Source of the DNA: an uncultured virus (IMG/VR IMGVR_UViG_3300042141_000279)
Taxonomy: Duplodnaviria > Heunggongvirae > Uroviricota > Caudoviricetes
Virus record (IMG/VR): IMGVR_UViG_3300042141_000279
DNA length: 64,000 nt
Strand: one strand, 5' to 3'
Part shown: in pieces, positions 27,087 through 35,908 of the stretch
Position numbering within the stretch: position 1 is the stretch's first letter
Layout of the letters: each line of letters opens with the position of its first letter
Program-made: the position numbers and the translations under genes
The notes under the pieces: generated by a model
What the model was told of the DNA's origin: nothing
The model's input: the letters and a program-made list of their open reading frames with translations, nothing else
Database searches by the model: none

Positions 27087-27950
27087 ATGACTCACACTCT
27101 CCTGTCTGTACTCCACGATCTGTACGTGCCGCTCAGGTCGCTCTGCCCAAGAAGCGTCGAGAACTACGAATTCACGATTCGTGCGTTTTCGACGTTTCTT
27201 GGGCGAGAGGCGACTCTGGACGACCTCGACGAACTGACCGTCGCGAGGTACCTAACCAATCGCGTCAAGGAGCGCGCGATCGCCACGGCCGCGAAGGACC
27301 GCGCCCAACTCCGCGCACTCCACGAGTTCAGCGTTCGCCGCAAACTTTGCGACCACTGGCCTCAGTATCCGCCGATTCGGGTGCCCGACCGCGTGCCGGA
27401 GGCGTGGTTCTCCGGCGAGATGCAGAGGCTTCTTGACAGTGCTGGTCAAGAGAAGACGGTCCTCGACGGCATCCCCGGCGGCTTGTGGTGGCGGGCGCTC
27501 CTGCTTCTGGCCTACGACACGGCCGAGCGTGCGACCGCTCTGACGAGCCTCCGCTGGAGGAACGTCAGAGGCTCATCGGTCCTCTTCGTGGCCGAGGACC
27601 GCAAGGGCCGTCGCCGCGACATCCTCCGCGAGATCGGCGAAGACACTCTGGCGGCGCTTGAAGCGATCCGTGGCGACCGCGGGCCTGACGACCTCGTCTT
27701 CCCGTGGCCTCGGACGAAGACGTACCTCTGGCGGCGGCTCGAGATCATCCTCGAGCGAGCCGGCCTGCCTCACGGCCGAAGGGACAAGTTCCACAGAATC
27801 CGCCGGACGACCGCGTCCTACTACGAGGCCGCCGGCGGCTCGGCGCAGCGGCTTCTTGACCATTCCGACCCGGCGACGACGAGGAAATACATCGACCCGC
27901 GGATCGTCAGGCCGCAGGCTGCGCCGGAACTGATCCCGAGGGTGTCGTGA
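27087..27950 (+). CDS. Tyrosine recombinase/integrase (Xer-like size)
   Basis: Catalytic set R (TAERA), K, HRIRR, LDHSD, RKY; N-terminal core-binding domain. Confidence 0.9.
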   Translation: MTHTLLSVLHDLYVPLRSLCPRSVENYEFTIRAFSTFLGREATLDDLDELTVARYLTNRVKERAIATAAKDRAQLRALHEFSVRRKLCDHWPQYPPIRVPDRVPEAWFSGEMQRLLDSAGQEKTVLDGIPGGLWWRALLLLAYDTAERATALTSLRWRNVRGSSVLFVAEDRKGRRRDILREIGEDTLAALEAIRGDRGPDDLVFPWPRTKTYLWRRLEIILERAGLPHGRRDKFHRIRRTTASYYEAAGGSAQRLLDHSDPATTRKYIDPRIVRPQAAPELIPRVS

Positions 27951-28212: not shown

Positions 28213-28389
28213 ATGAACCTCGCCGCCGCCGCCGAATTCCAGCAGGAGATCGCCCGCCTCCAAGCGGTCATCGACTCACTACGTCAGGAGGTGCGCGAGC
28301 AACGCCGGGAGATCGCCGGCCTGCGCGAAGAGCGGCGAGCGATACTCGACGCGGATCGACCGAGGGTGGATCAAGCGCTCGGAGGATGA
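28213..28389 (+). CDS. Small coiled-coil protein (58 aa)
   Basis: MNLAAAAEFQQEIARLQ...; read manually, below ORF-track cutoff. Confidence 0.5.
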   Translation: MNLAAAAEFQQEIARLQAVIDSLRQEVREQRREIAGLREERRAILDADRPRVDQALGG

Positions 28390-28448
28390 CGCCCATCCCA
28401 TATGCGAAAACCATCAGTAATGAGTGTTTTTCACATACGATTTGGGCG
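28390..28448. repeat. 59-bp quasi-palindrome, left copy
   Basis: CGCCC...CATATGCGAAA...ATACGAT..GGGCG; homologous to 29844-29902. Confidence 0.65.
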
Positions 28449-28724
28449 GCCGGAACTAGGTAACTTCACAAAGAATTAGGTAGTAAACTAGGTAATACCA
28501 CTCACTTTGCTCGCCGTCATACCGGCTGGACGCCATATCCAGCCAACTGGACGCTGCCCTCATAGTCAGCGGCTGCCGGCGGGCTGCCCCGAGGCGTAAC
28601 GCGGCCCGACAACGGCTTGGCGACGAGTGGACCGGGACAGTGGCACAGCGATCCCGGCGGGCAGGCACCGCACCGATAAAGCGGCCAGCCGAACCCGCCG
28701 GGGTCGCGTTCTGGAGAGTGGAAC

Positions 28725-29240
28725 ATGAAAGAATTCGATACACCGCAGCCCATCGACATCGTCATCCGCCTGCGCCAGACGCGGGCCGAAATGATTGGCA
28801 CTGACGACGAGCAGCACTACTGGGACTGCCATGATGCGGCCGACGAGATCGTTTCGCTGCGGGTGTTGCTGAAGCGGCAGAGCGAGGCGGCACATCAAGC
28901 AGTCACAATGATGGGCAGGTACGCCGAGCGATACGGATTCCTGCTGGGCGGGCTGGAGATGGTTGCCATCGGGCATACGACGGCCGAAAGGGTGTTGAGG
29001 TGTGCGAGAGACAAATACCCGGAAGACCCCGCAAGTACCCCGCAAGTAGCCCGCAGAACGCACAAGAACAGGAGCGGCGAGACATGGACACTGAGAACAC
29101 GCAAGGCGCGGCCGAGCCGTCTCCTGCATCCGCTGGTTCTCAGCCGGTGGCGTGGGCTGTCTGGTCGCCATCTTTCGGCTATCCGTTTGGCGATGCGGCA
29201 ATCTTCAAGCGGAACGAACTTGCAATCGAAATGTGCGTGA
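28725..29240 (+). CDS. Hypothetical protein (DIVxRLR...AADEI module; reads through attC-like site)
   Basis: GGAG SD; the C-terminal third overlaps the next gene and may be non-functional read-through. Confidence 0.55.
   Translation: MKEFDTPQPIDIVIRLRQTRAEMIGTDDEQHYWDCHDAADEIVSLRVLLKRQSEAAHQAVTMMGRYAERYGFLLGGLEMVAIGHTTAERVLRCARDKYPEDPASTPQVARRTHKNRSGETWTLRTRKARPSRLLHPLVLSRWRGLSGRHLSAIRLAMRQSSSGTNLQSKCA
29053..29142 (-). mobile_element. attC-like recombination site 1
   Basis: Minus strand TGAGAAC-CAGCG-GAT[G]CAGGAG[A]CGGC...GCCGCTCCTGTTC-TTGTGC-GTTCTGC; AAC/GTT cores, two unpaired bases. Confidence 0.75.
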
Positions 29241-29401
29241 TGAATGGGTACGGCGTTGACGACATTGTTCCGCTGTATCGCAAGCCGATGTTGGCAGACG
29301 AGGAGTTGAAAGCGATCCGAAGGGCGAAGGCAGTGGCACGCGAGATGCACGACTCGCGAATAGAGGCTGCGCTGGGTGGCCTACTGGAGCGGCTAGGCTG
29401 A
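29084..29401 (+). CDS. Cassette ORF 1 (..GSQPVAWAV...GLLERLG)
   Basis: AGGAG SD and ATG inside attC-like site 1; stop inside core of site 2. Confidence 0.7.
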   Translation: MDTENTQGAAEPSPASAGSQPVAWAVWSPSFGYPFGDAAIFKRNELAIEMCVMNGYGVDDIVPLYRKPMLADEELKAIRRAKAVAREMHDSRIEAALGGLLERLG

Positions 29402-29483
29402 GAACGGCTGCATTGAGCAGCCCGAGAGGGGACTTTGATATGACGCAGGACGATGCCGGGTCTGCTCCAATGCTTGGTTCTCA
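29399..29483 (-). mobile_element. attC-like recombination site 2
   Basis: Minus strand TGAGAAC-CAA-GCATTG[G]AGCAG[A]CCCG...CGGGCTGCTCAATGC-AGCC-GTTCTCA; paired arms with two extrahelical bases. Confidence 0.8.
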
Positions 29484-29793
29484 GCCGGTGGCGTGGGCTG
29501 TTGTGCGCACCGATGGGGAGTTTGAGTGCGTGCGCGAGTTGGAGGATGAGGCCCGCGAATACGCTGCATGGGTGCGGTCGGAGATGGGCGGGCAATACGA
29601 CGTTCTGCCACTCTACGCCAGCGACAGGTGTCCTCACATTCTCGGAAAGACGACGCACTACTGCTCGCTCAACTTCACGCTCACCAATGCGGAGCGGGCG
29701 GCGATCAGCGAGGCTTGCGACGAGGGGCGATGGTATCCACGCGATTACCACCATATTCGCACGCTGCGCGGGCTGCTGGAACGGCTAGGCTGA
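29440..29793 (+). CDS. Cassette ORF 2 (..GSQPVAWAV...GLLERLG)
   Basis: GAGGGG SD and ATG in the loop of attC-like site 2; stop inside the next core. Confidence 0.7.
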   Translation: MTQDDAGSAPMLGSQPVAWAVVRTDGEFECVRELEDEAREYAAWVRSEMGGQYDVLPLYASDRCPHILGKTTHYCSLNFTLTNAERAAISEACDEGRWYPRDYHHIRTLRGLLERLG

Positions 29794-29846
29794 GAACTTG
29801 TGTTTACACGGTCCGTATAACACGCCGCTTCCGTATATCACGCCGC
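29791..29846 (-). mobile_element. attI-like site (GTT core plus two direct repeats)
   Basis: GTTCTCA core without a partner arm; repeats CCGTATAACACGCCGC (29813) and CCGTATATCACGCCGC (29831). Confidence 0.5.
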
Positions 29847-29902
29847 CCCACTCATACGCGAAACTCATCGCAAAACGACTGATTGCCAATATGATCGGGG
29901 CG
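29844..29902. repeat. 59-bp quasi-palindrome, right copy
   Basis: CGCCC...CATACGCGAAA...ATATGAT..GGGCG. Confidence 0.65.
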
Positions 29903-29908
29903 TCGCGA

Positions 29909-30824
29909 TCAGACGGCGCAGCCGCTCGTCGCCCGCCACCACGCCACGGTCTCGGCGATCCCTTCTCGCAGCGTGACCTGCGGCTCCCACCCGAGCACCT
30001 TGCGTGCCAGTGAGGCGTCGACCGCACGGCGAGGCTGGCCGTCCGGCTTCGAGGAGTCCCAGCGGATCGTGCCGTGATGCTCGCACTCGCCGGCGATCAG
30101 TTCGGCGAGGTCTCGCATCGTCACCTCGCCGCCGCCGCCGAGGTTGACAGGCTCCGGCGTCTCGATGCGTTCGGCGGCACAAAGAATCCCTTCGGCCGCG
30201 TCGGCGACGTGCAGAAACTCGCGGCTGGCACTTCCGGTCCCCCAGAGCGTGACGTCGCCGGCATCGCAGAATCGCCGGATCATGGCTGGGATGACGTGGC
30301 TGGACGCCGGGTCGAAATTGTCCCCGGGGCCGTACAGATTGGTCGGGATCACGACGGCCCCCTCCATCCCGTACTGGGCGTGGTACTGCTTCAGGAGTTC
30401 GTAGACGGCCCTCTTCGCCACGCCGTACCCGGCGTTCGTCGGCTCTGGGTAGCCGTTCCAGAGGTCTTCCTCCTTGAACGGCACGGGCGGCGAGACGGGG
30501 TACGAGCATACCGTCCCGACGGCGACCGTGCGGCGGCACTCGTGCAGGCGGGCGGCCTCGACGACGTTCAGGCCCATCGCGAGGTTCGCGTATGTGAACC
30601 TGCCCGGCGTCCGCATATTGGCGCCGATTCCGCCGACCTCCGCGGCCAGATGCAAGACGACGTCCGGCCGGCAGGCTGCGAACAGTCTCGCCGTGGACCG
30701 CGGGTCGGTCAGGTCGCACACGCGCCGCCGCGGCACGGTGACCTGCGTGCAGCCGCGCTCCTCGAGCAGCCGGCACACGACGCGGCCGAGGAACCCTGCC
30801 CCGCCGGTGACCAGCACACGGCAG

Positions 30825-30847
<23 letters not shown>
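29909..30847 (-). CDS. fcl: GDP-L-fucose synthase family epimerase/reductase
   Basis: [51 protein letters not shown]. Confidence 0.93.
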
Positions 30848-31805
<958 letters not shown>

Positions 31806-32063: not shown

Positions 32064-32371
32064 TCCGGCCCCGCCACTACGCCCTCTGCCACGCCCACCT
32101 TCGCCACGTACTGCATCAACGCCCCCACCGCCGCCGCGAGGTCGGGATCGGAGTCGGCTCCCGCGAGCAGGTCGCGTACGTGCAGCCGGATCGGCTCGGC
32201 GGGTGCCTCCTCCACGCCGGTCTCGGTGGTGCGGAATCGGACCAGCGTGACGCGGGCTTCGGCTTCGCCTCCTGTCACGCTTGACACTACGATTTCACGG
32301 ACCCACAGGCGGTCGTACGTGGCTGCGTAAGACAGCGGCTCGGCAGCGTACAGCGTGGGGATGTCAGGCAT
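32060..32371 (-). CDS. Hypothetical protein (fibre-associated)
   Basis: Coupled to the fibre gene. Confidence 0.6.
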
Positions 32372-34478
32372 TGATCCTCTCCTCTAGTGCGGCGATGCGT
32401 GCGTTGCTTTCTTGCAGTGCCTTGATCAACACGGGCACCAACTTTTCATACGCCAACCCCAGATGGTCGCCGCACTGCGCGACCACGCTGTCGGCGTAGT
32501 CGGTGCCCGCGAGTGCCGCCTGAGCCTCTTGTGCGATCAGTCCGACCTGACGCTCGGTGGCGAAGTTGCGGTCGCTCTGCGGTATGAAGTCGAACGCGAC
32601 GGGTCGCAGCGATTCGATGACGCTGGTGGCGTCGGTCAGCGATTCGACGCGAGTCTTGAAGCGGGCGTCTGAGGTGGCGATCGTCGCGTTGGTGGCGTAA
32701 ATCTGGGAGTTGACTTGCAGAAGGTAGGCACCGTTGTCGGTGGTGGTGCCGATGAGTACCTCACCGCCCAGCGCCTGCATGTAGATCGGATACGAAACGG
32801 ACGATCCGAAACTCTGGCACTGGATGTACGTGCCTCCAGTGCTTGTGTTTACTCCTCCAATGCCAAGCCCATAGCCTGCCGAGAAGTTCTCAATCGTCAG
32901 AGGGTAGTATGTTTTCGCACCAAGCGCCGGAGTGCCGTTTGCAGATTGATACAGTGACGACGTGCCGACGATGTTCAGTCGCTCCGTCGTCATCTGCGTC
33001 CCAATCCCCACATTCCCGCTCGCATCCACCCGCACCCGCTCAAGCGAGTCGGTGACGATCGACAGCGAATTTGCACCGCCGACCTGCTGGATGCCCGTAT
33101 CGTCGTCCCCGCTGATCGCCAGTCCCGGCTTGTACGAGCCGCTGCTGCCGCTGCCTGCGGTGACGAAGCATTGCCCAGCCATCACCGTCTGCGCGACACC
33201 TGTGCTGGCATCGGTGCGACACCGCATCACCTCGCTTAGGCTGCCTGCACCGCCGCCCGTCTGCGCGAAGAACACCAGCGCGCCAGCGTAGTTCTGTGAT
33301 GCGGACGAGTCCTTGACGCCCTGAATCGCGCCGAATCCGTAGTCCGCAGTGCTGTTCCCTGTCTGGCCCTTGAAGAACACAGTTGGTCCGACATTGACCG
33401 CAGCGGTCGCCGTAGAGGTAAGGACAACAGTATGAGACGTGCCGTTTGCCGGTGCAGAACCGACGCTGCCAGACACGGAGACGCTTCCCGACGTAACCGC
33501 CGCCGCACCGGTGAACGCCGGACTCGCCGTCGGCTGCACGGACAGCACCGTGCGTGCCGTCGCGGCGTCCAGTTCCTCCACGTCGCCTGCACCCGCAGAC
33601 GAGCGACCGAGAATGCGGTTGGTGGCGGAGACGTTCTGGAGTTTGGCGTAGGTGACGGCGTCGTTCTGAATCTTCGCCGTGCTGACGGTGTTGTCCGTCG
33701 GCGTGCGGGTGTCGCTGAGACGCGAGTCGTTGCCCTGACACGCGGTGCCGCCACTGGTCCCGTACGTCACGCTCACCGTGCCGTTGATTGACACGCCCAG
33801 CCCCGAGCCGACGATCATCGCACCGGCGGCACCCGTCGTCGCGAGTGGCAGGCGGGCGGCGTCCAGCGTGCCGGAGGTCACGGCACTGGCCGCGATGGCG
33901 ATCGTCGTGTTCGACGCCGCCGTCAGGCGACCGTCAGCGCCGACGGTGAACGTGGCGACCTGCGTTGCCGAGCCGTAGGACGCTGCGGACACACCGCTCG
34001 CGGCGATTGTCGGATTCGGGTATGTGCCTGCGAGCGAGCCGCCTGCACTGCCCGTCGGAGTGCGGGAGTCGGAGAGCCTCGCGTCATTGCCGATGCACAC
34101 GGTGCTCGAAGACGAGCCCGTCGGAATGCGGGCAATGTCCAGCGTGCCGGACGTGATGTCCGACGCTGCGTGCGTGTGCGACGACGACGCCTTGCCATCG
34201 AGCGCCGTCTGAAGCCCGGTCACGTCGGAAATCGCGTGCGTGTGGCTGCTTGACGCCTTGCCGTCGAGGGCGGTTTGCAGCCCCGTTACATCAGAGATCG
34301 AGTGCGTGTGCGACGCGAGGGCGTAACTCTGGAACGTGAACGACGTGATGACGTTCGAGGCGTCCTTGAAATACAGAACTTTGTCGGCGTAGTTCAGTGC
34401 CAACTCGCCGTGCAGGAGCGACGACGGGGCCGATGCTCCGGGCGTGCCGTTGCGCTTGAGTTGGACCGGCGTTGGCAC
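32364..34478 (-). CDS. Tail fibre protein with C-terminal intramolecular chaperone (S74)
   Basis: [16 protein letters not shown] repeats; SDARFK...LRPV.F...GLIAQE; terminal coiled coil. Confidence 0.88.
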
Positions 34479-35908
34479 TAAAAAGACCCTCCATCGAGCG
34501 TCTCAAGAAACGCCACCGACGTGCCGGACGCGGAGTAGGTCAGGATGCCGTCGGTCGTGCCGCCCTGCACGGCAGAGACCGTGTCGAGCGCGTTCGACCC
34601 GAGGACGCTGCCCTTCGGCACGGTCGCGAGGCCAGTTCCACCCTTCGTAGGCCCGATCGCCGTTGCAGACCACACGCCGGTGGTCACCGTGCCGAGCGTC
34701 GTGATCGACGTCTGGCCGGCGTAGGCCGTCGAGATGTCGATGGAGTCGGCTGCCACGCTGATCCGATCCGCCGTCCCGACGGCGTTGATCGTGCTGCCGT
34801 CCTTCGTGAGGCCGTTGCCGGCGGTGATCTGGCCGGCGCCGGAGAACTGGGCGAACGCCAGCGACGTCGTGCCGACCGTGATCGTGCCGTTTGTCGTCAG
34901 CACCCAGCCCGTGTCCGCGTTCGTCGTGCCTTCCTCTACGAACGTGAACGCACCCGGCGTCACTTCGGCGTCAGCGTCGAAGTCGGTGGCACGCACCGCC
35001 GCCCCGGACGCCTGCACGACGTAGATGCCGTTCTGCGACGCCGTGTCCTGATTCTTGACGAGCACCCGGTCGCCCGTGGCGAGCGTCACGCCGTCGATCG
35101 CGTCGCCGTTCTCAAGCGCGCTCGACAGGTCGATGTTCGCCGTGGTCGCGGCCCTGACGCTTTGCTTGACGTCGAGGCCGTTCCTCGCAGCATCGACGTC
35201 CGCTTTCCTCGCGGCGTCGTTCGCATCTGTCGGCGCCGCGAGGTTCGTGATCTTCTGCGAGTTCATCGTCAGCGACGCCGTCGGCGCAGCGAATGACGTC
35301 AGGTTGTACGCCTTGACCGTGGTCTCGAGGTCGGTCACGTTCGCCGCGACGTGTGTGTGGACGGCGGACGCGGCGGAAACATCGACCGAGGTCAGGCTGA
35401 CTGTGCCGACCTTTCCGTTGACGCTTGAGACCGGCCCGTACTTGGCCGCCTCTGTCGCGAAGTCAGTGACGTCGGCTGCGACGTGCGTGTGGACGGCGGA
35501 CGCCGCGCTCACGTCGACTGACGTCAGGCTGACAGTCCCGGTCTTCCCGTTGACGCTGGAAACCGGCCCGACGAGCGACGCGGCTGTCGTGAAGTCGGTG
35601 ATCTTGACGCTGGTCAGCGACGGGATGTCGTCGGCCACGAGCGCACGGAACGTCGGCGCCGCGTCCGGCCCCGAAGTCGGCCCGGCGAGCACCTTGTTGG
35701 CCTCGCGGACAGTGACGATCGAGATGAACGCCCCGCCGCCGCCGATAGCGACCACGTTCGCGGCGTTCGTGCCGCTCGAGCCGGTGCCGATGTAGAGCGT
35801 GCCAGCACCGCCCGTGCCGGCGGCTTCGGCGTAGGCTAACTCCGCATTCAGGAGATGCTCAGGAGCCGAGCCGCCTGTAGACCTGCGGATACGAATGCGA
35901 TTAGCCAT
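34478..35908 (-). CDS. Tail fibre / structural protein
   Basis: VSSVNGKTG repeats, [18 protein letters not shown]...[16 protein letters not shown] domain. Confidence 0.8.

Follow-up and report, generated by a model that had tools for sequence, protein, structure and literature searches.

An integron-derived attI and attC array with reversed cassette genes in an uncultivated tailed phage

The IMG/VR record IMGVR_UViG_3300042141_000279 is a stretch of 64,000 nucleotides (nt) from an uncultured virus of the Caudoviricetes, referred to here as the window. Its genes are those of a tailed phage, encoding a major head protein, a protease, tail and fibre proteins, a helicase, a primase and an exonuclease. 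At positions 28709–29868, the window carries a compact array of attC-like hairpins, small open reading frames (ORFs) and an attI-like site. An initial annotation had read this locus as an integron-type array in a phage, and our analysis supports that central reading. The features concerned are as follows:

28709–29059, + strand: cassette-like body ('cassette 0'), starting with GTTCTGG and ending with GCAGAAC
29053–29142, + strand (assigned below as the bottom strand): attC site el1 (type E1), with AAC at 29057–29059 and GTT at 29136–29138
29084–29401, + strand: ORF1, 105 amino acids (aa), with the attC-encoded leader MDTENTQGAAEPSPASAGS and its TGA stop within the next core, TGAGAAC
29399–29483, + strand: attC site el2 (type E0), with AAC at 29403–29405 and GTT at 29477–29479
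29440–29793, + strand: ORF2, 117 aa, with the attC-encoded leader MTQDDAGSAPMLGS and its TGA stop within the terminal core
29791–29797, + strand: terminal core TGAGAAC, where the attI-proximal cassette meets attI, with a predicted crossover between AA and C
29798–29868, + strand: attI-like site, TTGTGTTTACACGG followed by two direct repeats TCCGTATA(A/T)CACGCCGC
28643–28707, + strand: conserved 64-bp hairpin block at the array end furthest from attI
27087–27950, + strand: phage tyrosine recombinase, given for context and probably outside the system

The cores read GCAGAAC (29053–29059) and TGAGAAC (29399–29405 and 29791–29797) on one side and GGTTCT (29135–29140 and 29476–29481) on the other, and the AAC-to-AAC distances are 346 and 392 bp. 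In el1, the Shine–Dalgarno sequence (SD) AGGAG lies in the stem and the ATG (29084) in the loop; in el2, the SD (GAGAGGGGA) and the ATG (29440) are in the loop, and the extrahelical bases are a T at 29461 and a C at 29468. The proposal that start and stop signals are built into the att sites holds for both ORFs, as their ATGs are found in the hairpin loops and their TGAs in the next core.

The hairpins at 29053–29142 and 29399–29483 had been described as attC-like, and their cores, coordinates and architecture all hold: both are members of an attC family. Copies of el2 that are 91–96% identical occur in 25 IMG/VR contigs. Because these elements of ~85 bp keep 91–96% identity between contigs whose flanks do not align, and because the window holds no further copy (a covariance model finds no third one in the 64 kb), chance resemblance can be excluded. 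Several contigs carry multiple copies, with same-strand arrays of up to 8 matches (7 full-length) in L008 and 11 matches (7 full-length) in L015. The family was collected by pattern scans and nhmmer, giving 199 matches; a scan with the 14-mer CATCCGCTGGTTCT was mostly unspecific (124 stretches), and the true copies were sorted out by nhmmer. This resulted in 85 distinct full-length copies and 45 non-redundant loci (contigs), with the elements falling into 22 clusters. The covariance model matches el1 at 29047–29149 (78.4 bits, E 5.6e-20) and el2 at 29393–29490 (88.5 bits, E 6.8e-23), both of which were in its training set.

On the + strand, each element consists of a 5′ AAC arm, an unpaired spacer, a bulged stem, a loop and a bulged GTT arm. 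AAC and TGGTT are invariant in all 85 copies, and the conserved block ends sharply at AGAAC and GGTTCT. In the 85-copy alignment, 12 of the 16 pairs of the inner helix have changed on both sides and 89.9% of the cells are paired. The covariation score (0.333, with the secondary structure written from this same alignment) compares with at most 0.097 when partners are slid by 1–3 columns, and none of 500 shuffles reaches it. A bacterial set (A3), whose alignment was fitted to the model, scores 0.346 versus at most 0.095. The initial annotation had named a lack of compensatory changes across homologues as grounds for its own rejection; the changes are strong. The two extra bases that it had noted are real as well: the GTT arm carries them as T and C on the + strand, equivalent to A and G on the minus strand. 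Both bulges are kept in every subtype (alignment columns 78 and 85) with six pairs between them, and with the 3′ end of the 7-nt core as the starting point of the count, their positions are 16 (C) and 23 (T), the same as in attC(aadA), the aadA1 attC. Folded alone, el2 reaches −50.5 kcal/mol as RNA (z −3.8 against shuffles) and z −3.75 as minus-strand DNA. The elements combine the features by which attC sites are recognized: an AAC...GTT triplet pair, an unpaired central spacer, an L-box stem, extrahelical bases and covariation.

The position of the bulges also bears on which strand would be recombined. As described for attC sites, AAC sits in R′ of the bottom strand, across from the arm with the bulges; at position 16, the first of these is most often a G, the furthest (23 or 24) is a conserved T, and the first and last must have six pairs between them (PMC5027507). 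In the window, it is the + strand that has the AAC arm at its 5′ side and the bulges on the GTT arm. Two controls were included: in plus orientation, a covariance model trained on phage copies only (R1) matches the attC of aadA1 on the strand opposite to that of its gene, and in metagenome contigs with the attI motif described below, the attCs lie upstream in plus orientation and the IntI homologues beyond attI. Because of the bulge arm and these two controls, we assign the + (coding) strand of the window, by sequence criteria, as the recombinogenic bottom strand, with the minus strand as the top strand. The ORFs would then run antisense to the canonical orientation, as had been proposed.

If the attC family delimits mobile units, the ends of each unit should carry a signature. 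Complementary cassette ends are the argument that first placed the integron crossover at the GTT triplet. Both cassettes of the window have the complementary ends noted initially, GTTCTCAGCC/GGCTGAGAAC, over 10 nt. Defining a body by the G of GTT at its start and the C of the following AAC at its end, we compared 68 bodies across contigs. The first 8 nt are the reverse complement of the last 8 nt at a mean of 4.40 of 5 variable positions, and 43 of the 68 bodies, in 15 distinct core types, have perfect ends (permutation mean 10.3, maximum 23). The two sides of a single element in place score 2.91 of 5 (13 of 95 perfect), a value level with the permutation baseline of 2.93 (standard deviation 0.13, maximum 3.41 in 5000). 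Taking one body per protein family (41 families), the values are 4.53 versus 2.79, with ~30 perfect bodies versus a mean of 5.2 (maximum 13). The boundary is the one expected for a cassette: it falls between AA and C, and the inverse core matches the start of its own cassette.

The bodies themselves are highly diverse, forming 67 DNA clusters among 68 bodies, and the cassette ORFs comprise 28 protein families. A histogram of the ends of high-scoring segment pairs (HSPs) was dominated by element-to-element matches and does not resolve the linkage between body and attC, which could be examined for one shared body. This body of 282 bp, ~98% identical in L019 and L023, is bordered by different attCs in each, and its right breakpoint lies exactly after AAC. 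Comparison with related contigs also gives evidence of turnover. L007 has in common with the window a flanking small gene, the 64-bp block, the E0 attC and attI, and carries one cassette versus three. Contigs from the same freshwater samples share only attC and attI pieces with the window and diverge at 29139–29141, 29481–29483 and 29795–29797; three contig 'joints' have unidentified letters between their sides.

The third core closes the array at an attI-like site. It had been noted to adjoin two direct repeats of 16 bp; the adjacency stands, and the repeats are 17 nt long (29812–29828 and 29830–29846, 94% identical). Spanning 29812–29846, they are candidates for DR1 and DR2: attI sites have R and L boxes plus the direct repeats DR1 and DR2 that bind IntI, according to a figure legend of Qi et al. 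(PMC9892861, Fig. 4). The sequence after the third core, AAC followed by TTGTGTTTACACGGTCCGTATAAC, is identical at 21 of 24 nt to AAC followed by TTGTATTTATACGGTCTGTATAAC in the bacterial contig L293, which derives from a metagenome-assembled genome (MAG). There, the motif lies ~300 nt from a partial IntI gene, and it also closes the arrays of L177 and L227. The homology starts at the AAC of the terminal core, and the attI-like site is found by nhmmer at E 1.1e-14. One cassette end, GCGTGCCTGCCGCAGAAC, recurs in two settings: L293 has it joined to attI, L177 to an attC. The first ~14 nt furthermore resemble attI1 of class 1 integrons (AACTTGTGTTTA versus AACTTTGTTTTA). The initial proposal of an attI-like array end is borne out by this homology to attI sites beside IntI in bacterial contigs.

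A metagenome scan with the attI motif gave 77 contigs (loci include L305–L381). An IntI homologue is present in 19 of them, in every case to the right of attI on the minus strand, ~340 nt beyond it and with its 3′ end facing attI (19/19). All 64 attC matches (35 contigs) lie to the left of attI on the plus strand. Among 72 cassette ends (20 nt each), 59 are distinct, and up to 7 occur beside one identical 60-nt attI; we regard this bacterial family as active integrons. In these contigs (L305–L381, L293, L200), intI points the same way as the cassette top strand, which reverses the class 1 arrangement. The phage-type attI with its two repeats is found in the window, L007 and L375, with a different cassette abutting each, and sites of weaker resemblance end the arrays of L057 and L095. 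The phage site thus has the layout of an attI with variable cassettes on one side and the junction at the triplet, lacking intI.

The attC sites, too, have bacterial counterparts. A scan of one genome per prokaryote species gave many chance matches; it was followed by nhmmer, and only loci supported by a hidden Markov model (HMM) or covariance model were used. The same element family forms arrays on MAG contigs labelled Planctomycetota, Pirellulales and others. In one of these, labelled Pirellulales (G002:C48), an IntI matching TIGR02249 in two pieces (263 + 104 bits) is directly beside the array; matches above the 265-bit cut-off are found in G004:C75 (430 bits) and in G013, G014 and G016, and the G004 protein is 52% identical to IntI1. 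The intI of G002:C48 (7714–8546, equal to L200 5589–6622) is split over two overlapping frames and is possibly frameshifted, as a pseudogene or by assembly error. An IntI in G013:C5 was considered as orientation evidence for L202 and dropped, as G013:C5 proved to be a different contig.

The model R1 finds 89 same-strand matches in 22 bacterial loci, including contigs labelled as beta-proteobacterial and Chitinophagaceae. It also matches the class 1 aadA1 attC (26.1 bits, E 1.6e-6 in a 1.7-kb search), with the aadA1 bulges T and G coinciding with the phage T and C in the alignment. For one phage attC type (E3), both arms (GCGATCAGCGGCTCGCGACC / ATCGCGAGTCCGCTGCATCGC) are common to host sites. 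Judged by these matches, the phage sites share their family with attC and attI sites that neighbour bona fide integron integrases, and they are clearly homologous to those of the chromosomal integrons of Planctomycetota-type freshwater bacteria. Phage-type elements, either leader-bearing or E3 and with bottom-strand ORFs, also occur on three short contigs (L223 881–982, L193 and L218) attributed to a Cyanobium isolate assembly and to MAGs, where co-assembly or mis-binning has probably placed what are phage contigs.

The phage cassettes differ from the bacterial ones in how their genes are placed. The GGT-TCT frame is open in 37 of 54 short phage bodies; each of the remaining frames is open in fewer, with 4 and 6 for the + strand and 6, 12 and 7 for the minus strand. 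GC contents at codon positions 1 to 3 (GC1-3) of the GGT-TCT frame are 0.649/0.489/0.684; those of ORF1 are 0.65/0.48/0.67. Stops lie within the core, in the forms TGAGAAC, ATAAC and TAG-CCACAGAAC (TGAgaac in 20 bodies, TAGccacagaac in 6 and aTAAc in 5). Counting in-frame ATGs that precede GGT by at least 6 codons, 80 of 95 phage elements have one and none of the 58 attCs from bacterial-type contigs with attI does. Among 37 host bodies, 17 have an ORF spanning at least 80% of their length on the top strand and 4 have one on the bottom strand. In the phage sites, the variable loop supplies SD and ATG, and the GTT arm encodes the last ~9 codons of a leader of 14–19 residues that always ends in Gly-Ser (GGT TCT), with the end motif …S-x-x-S/M-x-G-S. 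By these reading-frame and codon statistics, the phage cassettes are reversed: their genes are on the bottom strand, with the initiation region in attC and the stop in the next core.

The products of the cassettes have no recognizable function. Searches of Pfam, PHROGs and NCBIfam return nothing for ORF1, ORF2 or the ORF at 28725, and the largest cassette family has no Pfam or PDB match. A public protein collection contains 46 homologues of ORF2. They have no Pfam domain and, where named, are called 'hypothetical protein'; for these, public gene callers predict the same + strand proteins. In an AlphaFold 2 (AF2) model of ORF2 (predicted local distance difference test (pLDDT) 71.6, predicted template modelling score (pTM) 0.47), the leader is predicted to be disordered, and the model has no PDB match at E ≤ 0.001. 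ORF1 and ORF2 are 30% identical (E 8e-5) and most alike at their N- and C-termini, sharing GSQPVAW... and ...LLERLG*. ORF1 belongs to an 18-member family (18 of 55 cassette ORFs), some members of which (e.g. P0017 and P0024) have no leader. The family, the largest among the cassettes, is modular, with conserved PVAW, PLY, TLTDEEREAI and TLRGLLERLG motifs between hypervariable segments.

Which enzyme would act on these sites? The only tyrosine recombinase of the window (27087–27950) matches Pfam Phage_integrase at 42.8 bits and does not match TIGR02249; among NCBIfam models, XerD scores highest with 41.5 bits, where the cut-off is 329.6. It aligns to a MAG IntI by BLASTP at E 2.6, and no homologue of it lies within 4–5 kb beside any other array. 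No IntI match at E ≤ 0.001 was obtained in five records of related phages, of which one is 98% complete. The nearest record (G001, 97% complete) has one tyrosine recombinase only, and three fragmentary array-bearing records (17–28% complete) have none. The locus is not a complete integron with an integrase of its own. A cluster of attC sites lacking an integrase (CALIN) is defined by at least two attCs without a nearby intI (Cury et al. 2016, PMC4889954), and the window, with two attC matches and no IntI in it or its relatives, is one. Because the phage recombinase is not an IntI and the relatives lack one, a host IntI acting in trans is the likely enzyme. Of the two drivers named in the initial annotation, the host enzyme is plausible, and the neighbouring recombinase, being unrelated to IntI, is unlikely.

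Taken together, we are very confident that the locus is genuinely an integron-derived array of attI plus attC sites, with reversed ORFs initiated in attC. Its fuller interpretation is probable: 28709–29868 would be an integron platform without integrase in a tailed phage, comprising attI, two complete cassettes and a degenerate one, and recombined by a host IntI. That such recombination is ongoing is a claim to which we lean with some reserve. In this scenario, a host IntI supplied in trans during infection would cut between AA and C on the folded + strand. As the canonical crossover predicts this cut on the + strand, the mobile unit would be an attC plus the ORF starting in it; in + coordinates it would read [C, attC, ORF, stop, …AA], giving units of 346 and 392 nt that are complete translation units. 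The unit would be excised as a circle, in which the 8-bp body ends pair and complete the R box, and would be reinserted at the phage attI or exchanged between co-infecting phages. The array would be transcribed on the + strand from its distal end towards attI, with each cassette translated from its own attC-borne initiation region at any array position.

Several observations weigh against this interpretation. No recombination event is seen in the data, which are assembled contigs only, and the closest records (G001, L001 and L002) carry an identical array without polymorphism. Imperfectly complementary ends are found in 25 of the 68 bodies, and 31 of the 68 are not a single in-frame ORF. The attCs upstream of the body shared by L019 and L023 have the same arms and different loops, so that linkage of body and attC is not strict. 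As 18 of the 55 cassette ORFs are paralogous, part of the cassette diversity stems from duplication. The sites themselves deviate from the norm: the first bulge is a C instead of the usual G, and the cores are, as annotated, GTTCTCA and GTTCTGC instead of GTTRRRY. The fold check suggested at the outset succeeded for el2, which lies far below its shuffles, and failed for el1, which folded alone stays at shuffle level (z 0.2 to 0.85); el1 is validated solely through its family, by the covariance-model match and the covariation over 85 copies. Lastly, simple scans of 28300–30000, including one for sigma-70 promoters, found no promoter or terminator.

Some of these points are what one would expect if the attCs were fossils, descended from an integron and no longer recombined by IntI, with their hairpins kept for RNA roles (presentation of SD and AUG in a loop, coupling to the upstream stop, or stabilising or processing of the mRNA) and homologous recombination doing the shuffling. 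Such shuffling has been proposed for the promoter/stem-loop cassettes of T4-type phages. We consider this unlikely, though deserving of attention: it would account for phages without IntI, for contigs that show no recombination product and relatives with identical arrays, and for an SD and ATG placed in the loop, and an upstream stop in the basal stem, of an RNA hairpin of −50.5 kcal/mol. It would also fit the shared body (b0), where identical arms and different loops suggest a crossover within the arms. RNA roles, however, leave the invariant AAC and GTT and the bulges at 16 and 23 unexplained. The core bases match the far end of their own body, not the same hairpin (4.40 versus 2.91 of 5); the attC types share only 5–7 nt at their edges, yet the breakpoints fall exactly there; and in host integrons that share this attI, cassettes turn over actively.

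Since ORF1 and ORF2 are weak paralogues with similar termini, plain tandem paralogy was the first working rival, the shared ends and hairpin being by-products of protein homology and chance complementarity. The size of the ORF1 family, and its leaderless members, would agree with this. The same elements, however, precede unrelated bodies (67 DNA clusters among 68 bodies, 28 protein families), and their DNA is 91–96% identical where the proteins do not align. Non-aligning flanks, covariation, body diversity and the R1 matches, along with the homology to IntI-linked attC and attI sites, refute paralogy as a sufficient explanation, and we give it next to no weight. It is only marginally more credible that the recombinase at 27087–27950 recombines the sites. 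It lies ~1.1 kb upstream on the same strand and has a Phage_integrase catalytic domain, but the lack of a TIGR02249 match, the E of 2.6 against the MAG IntI and the missing homologues beside other arrays make this very improbable.

At its distal end, the array is less regular. Cassette 0 has its own SD and an ATG at 28725, and its left side lacks an intact attC. Its frame is open from 28725 until a stop at 29240 (GC1-3 of 28725–29047 is 0.64/0.42/0.75), and its end, CGCAAGTAGCC-CGCAGAAC, is similar to the common cassette end CGCAAGTAGCCACAGAAC. Just 5′ of the el1 core is a perfect 11-bp tandem duplication (ACCCCGCAAGT x2, 29026–29047). The ORF at 28725 overlaps ORF1 in a different frame, and removing one 11-bp copy would result in an in-frame fusion to ORF1; it may be a frameshifted or decaying cassette. 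The 64-bp block further left contains an inverted repeat (28648–28661 / 28694–28707, 93% complementary) and has neither an AAC core nor bulges, and so is not a complete attC. It is 98% identical in L005 and L007, where it is directly 5′ of the first attC. In these two contigs, the GC-rich hairpin block is followed by TTTTT, which gives it the look of an intrinsic terminator; the window has CGTTCTGG instead.

Two further observations concern the surroundings. Upstream of the array, 28454–28500 is AT-rich and non-coding and has three direct repeats of ~10 nt (AACTAGGTAA / ATTAGGTAGT / AACTAGGTAA), which could be an operator or promoter region of the + strand operon. Directly beyond attI, in the position that intI takes in bacteria, the minus strand has genes for a GDP-mannose 4,6-dehydratase and for an epimerase resembling GDP-L-fucose synthase (Pfam, 29909–31805), which adjoin the tail-fibre genes (32364–35908).

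In the main, integrons are known as devices of bacteria. Clusters of attC sites in phages entered the literature no earlier than 2023, and few of them: Qi et al. (PMC9892861) count 17 CALINs among the integron parts in phages and describe recombination of five of six phage attCs by IntI1. As phage CALINs are in print (PMC9892861), calling the window a new kind of system would be an overstatement. Like the phage CALINs described in that report, the window has same-strand attCs, no intI and small ORFs of unknown function, and it shares the attC architecture given for CALINs: R boxes, an unpaired spacer, a bulged stem and a variable loop (PMC4889954, PMC9892861). Unlike them, it has kept a recognizable attI homologue and has bottom-strand ORFs that start inside attC. 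Qi et al. describe cassettes co-oriented as in typical bacterial arrays for two phages and divergent attC directions for another (PMC9892861). The relatives of the window also differ from those CALINs in their arrays of 7 or more sites and in their hosts, apparently Planctomycetota.

The sedentary chromosomal integrons of the Planctomycetota type (L199/L200, L177, L293, L315, L316, L358 and others) share with the phage the attC family, the attI core motif and the attC-to-attI polarity. They differ in having IntI ~340 nt beyond attI, ORFs mostly on the top strand, and no attC with an in-frame ATG among the 58. A recombination site with an SD and ATG that aid cassette translation is known from class 1 integrons, namely ORF-11/ORF-18 in attI1 (PMC8876359). 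As described there, however, ORF-11 is located in attI on the top strand and serves the first cassette only, by translational coupling (PMC8876359). In the phage, by contrast, every attC has a bottom-strand initiation region, with the leader fused in frame to the cassette protein. Synthetic attCs placed within coding sequence illustrate that a structure-dependent function allows coding overlap (Nivina et al. 2020, PMC7439510); those sites were engineered, at least in the work described, and the phage sites would be a natural case, with the overlap at the gene start. In the literature searched (subscription journals excepted), we found no description of bottom-strand start codons or leaders embedded in attC. 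The new part is the bottom-strand ORFs with SD, ATG and leader inside attC.

How might such an arrangement have arisen? Tentatively, and as a possibility on which we would not insist, a lineage of freshwater Planctomycetota phages may have domesticated a host integron, keeping attI and a cassette array, doing without intI and depending on the host enzyme, and may have rebuilt the loop and one arm of attC as a ribosome-binding site, start and leader, with the stop codon in the crossover core, yielding a store for shuffling accessory genes, possibly for counter-defence. If true, an excised circle would be a full translation unit that can be expressed anywhere in the phage operon. Host integrons have been described as storing anti-phage defence cassettes (10.1101/2024.07.02.601686); the phage store would then mirror these.

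Arrays of this type are found in an entire group of uncultivated phages (45 non-redundant contigs) and reach 7 or more sites. Given that the sites of these phages are clearly homologous to those of active integrons in the presumed hosts, the cassette pools of phage and host may be linked through one enzyme. The reversed cassettes would represent natural attCs that double as translation-initiation region and coding sequence, which bears on the sequence freedom of attC, on expression far from the Pc promoter and on the still-unsolved origin of cassettes. With units of 346 and 392 bp, they are compact enough to suit strand-selective recombination assays.

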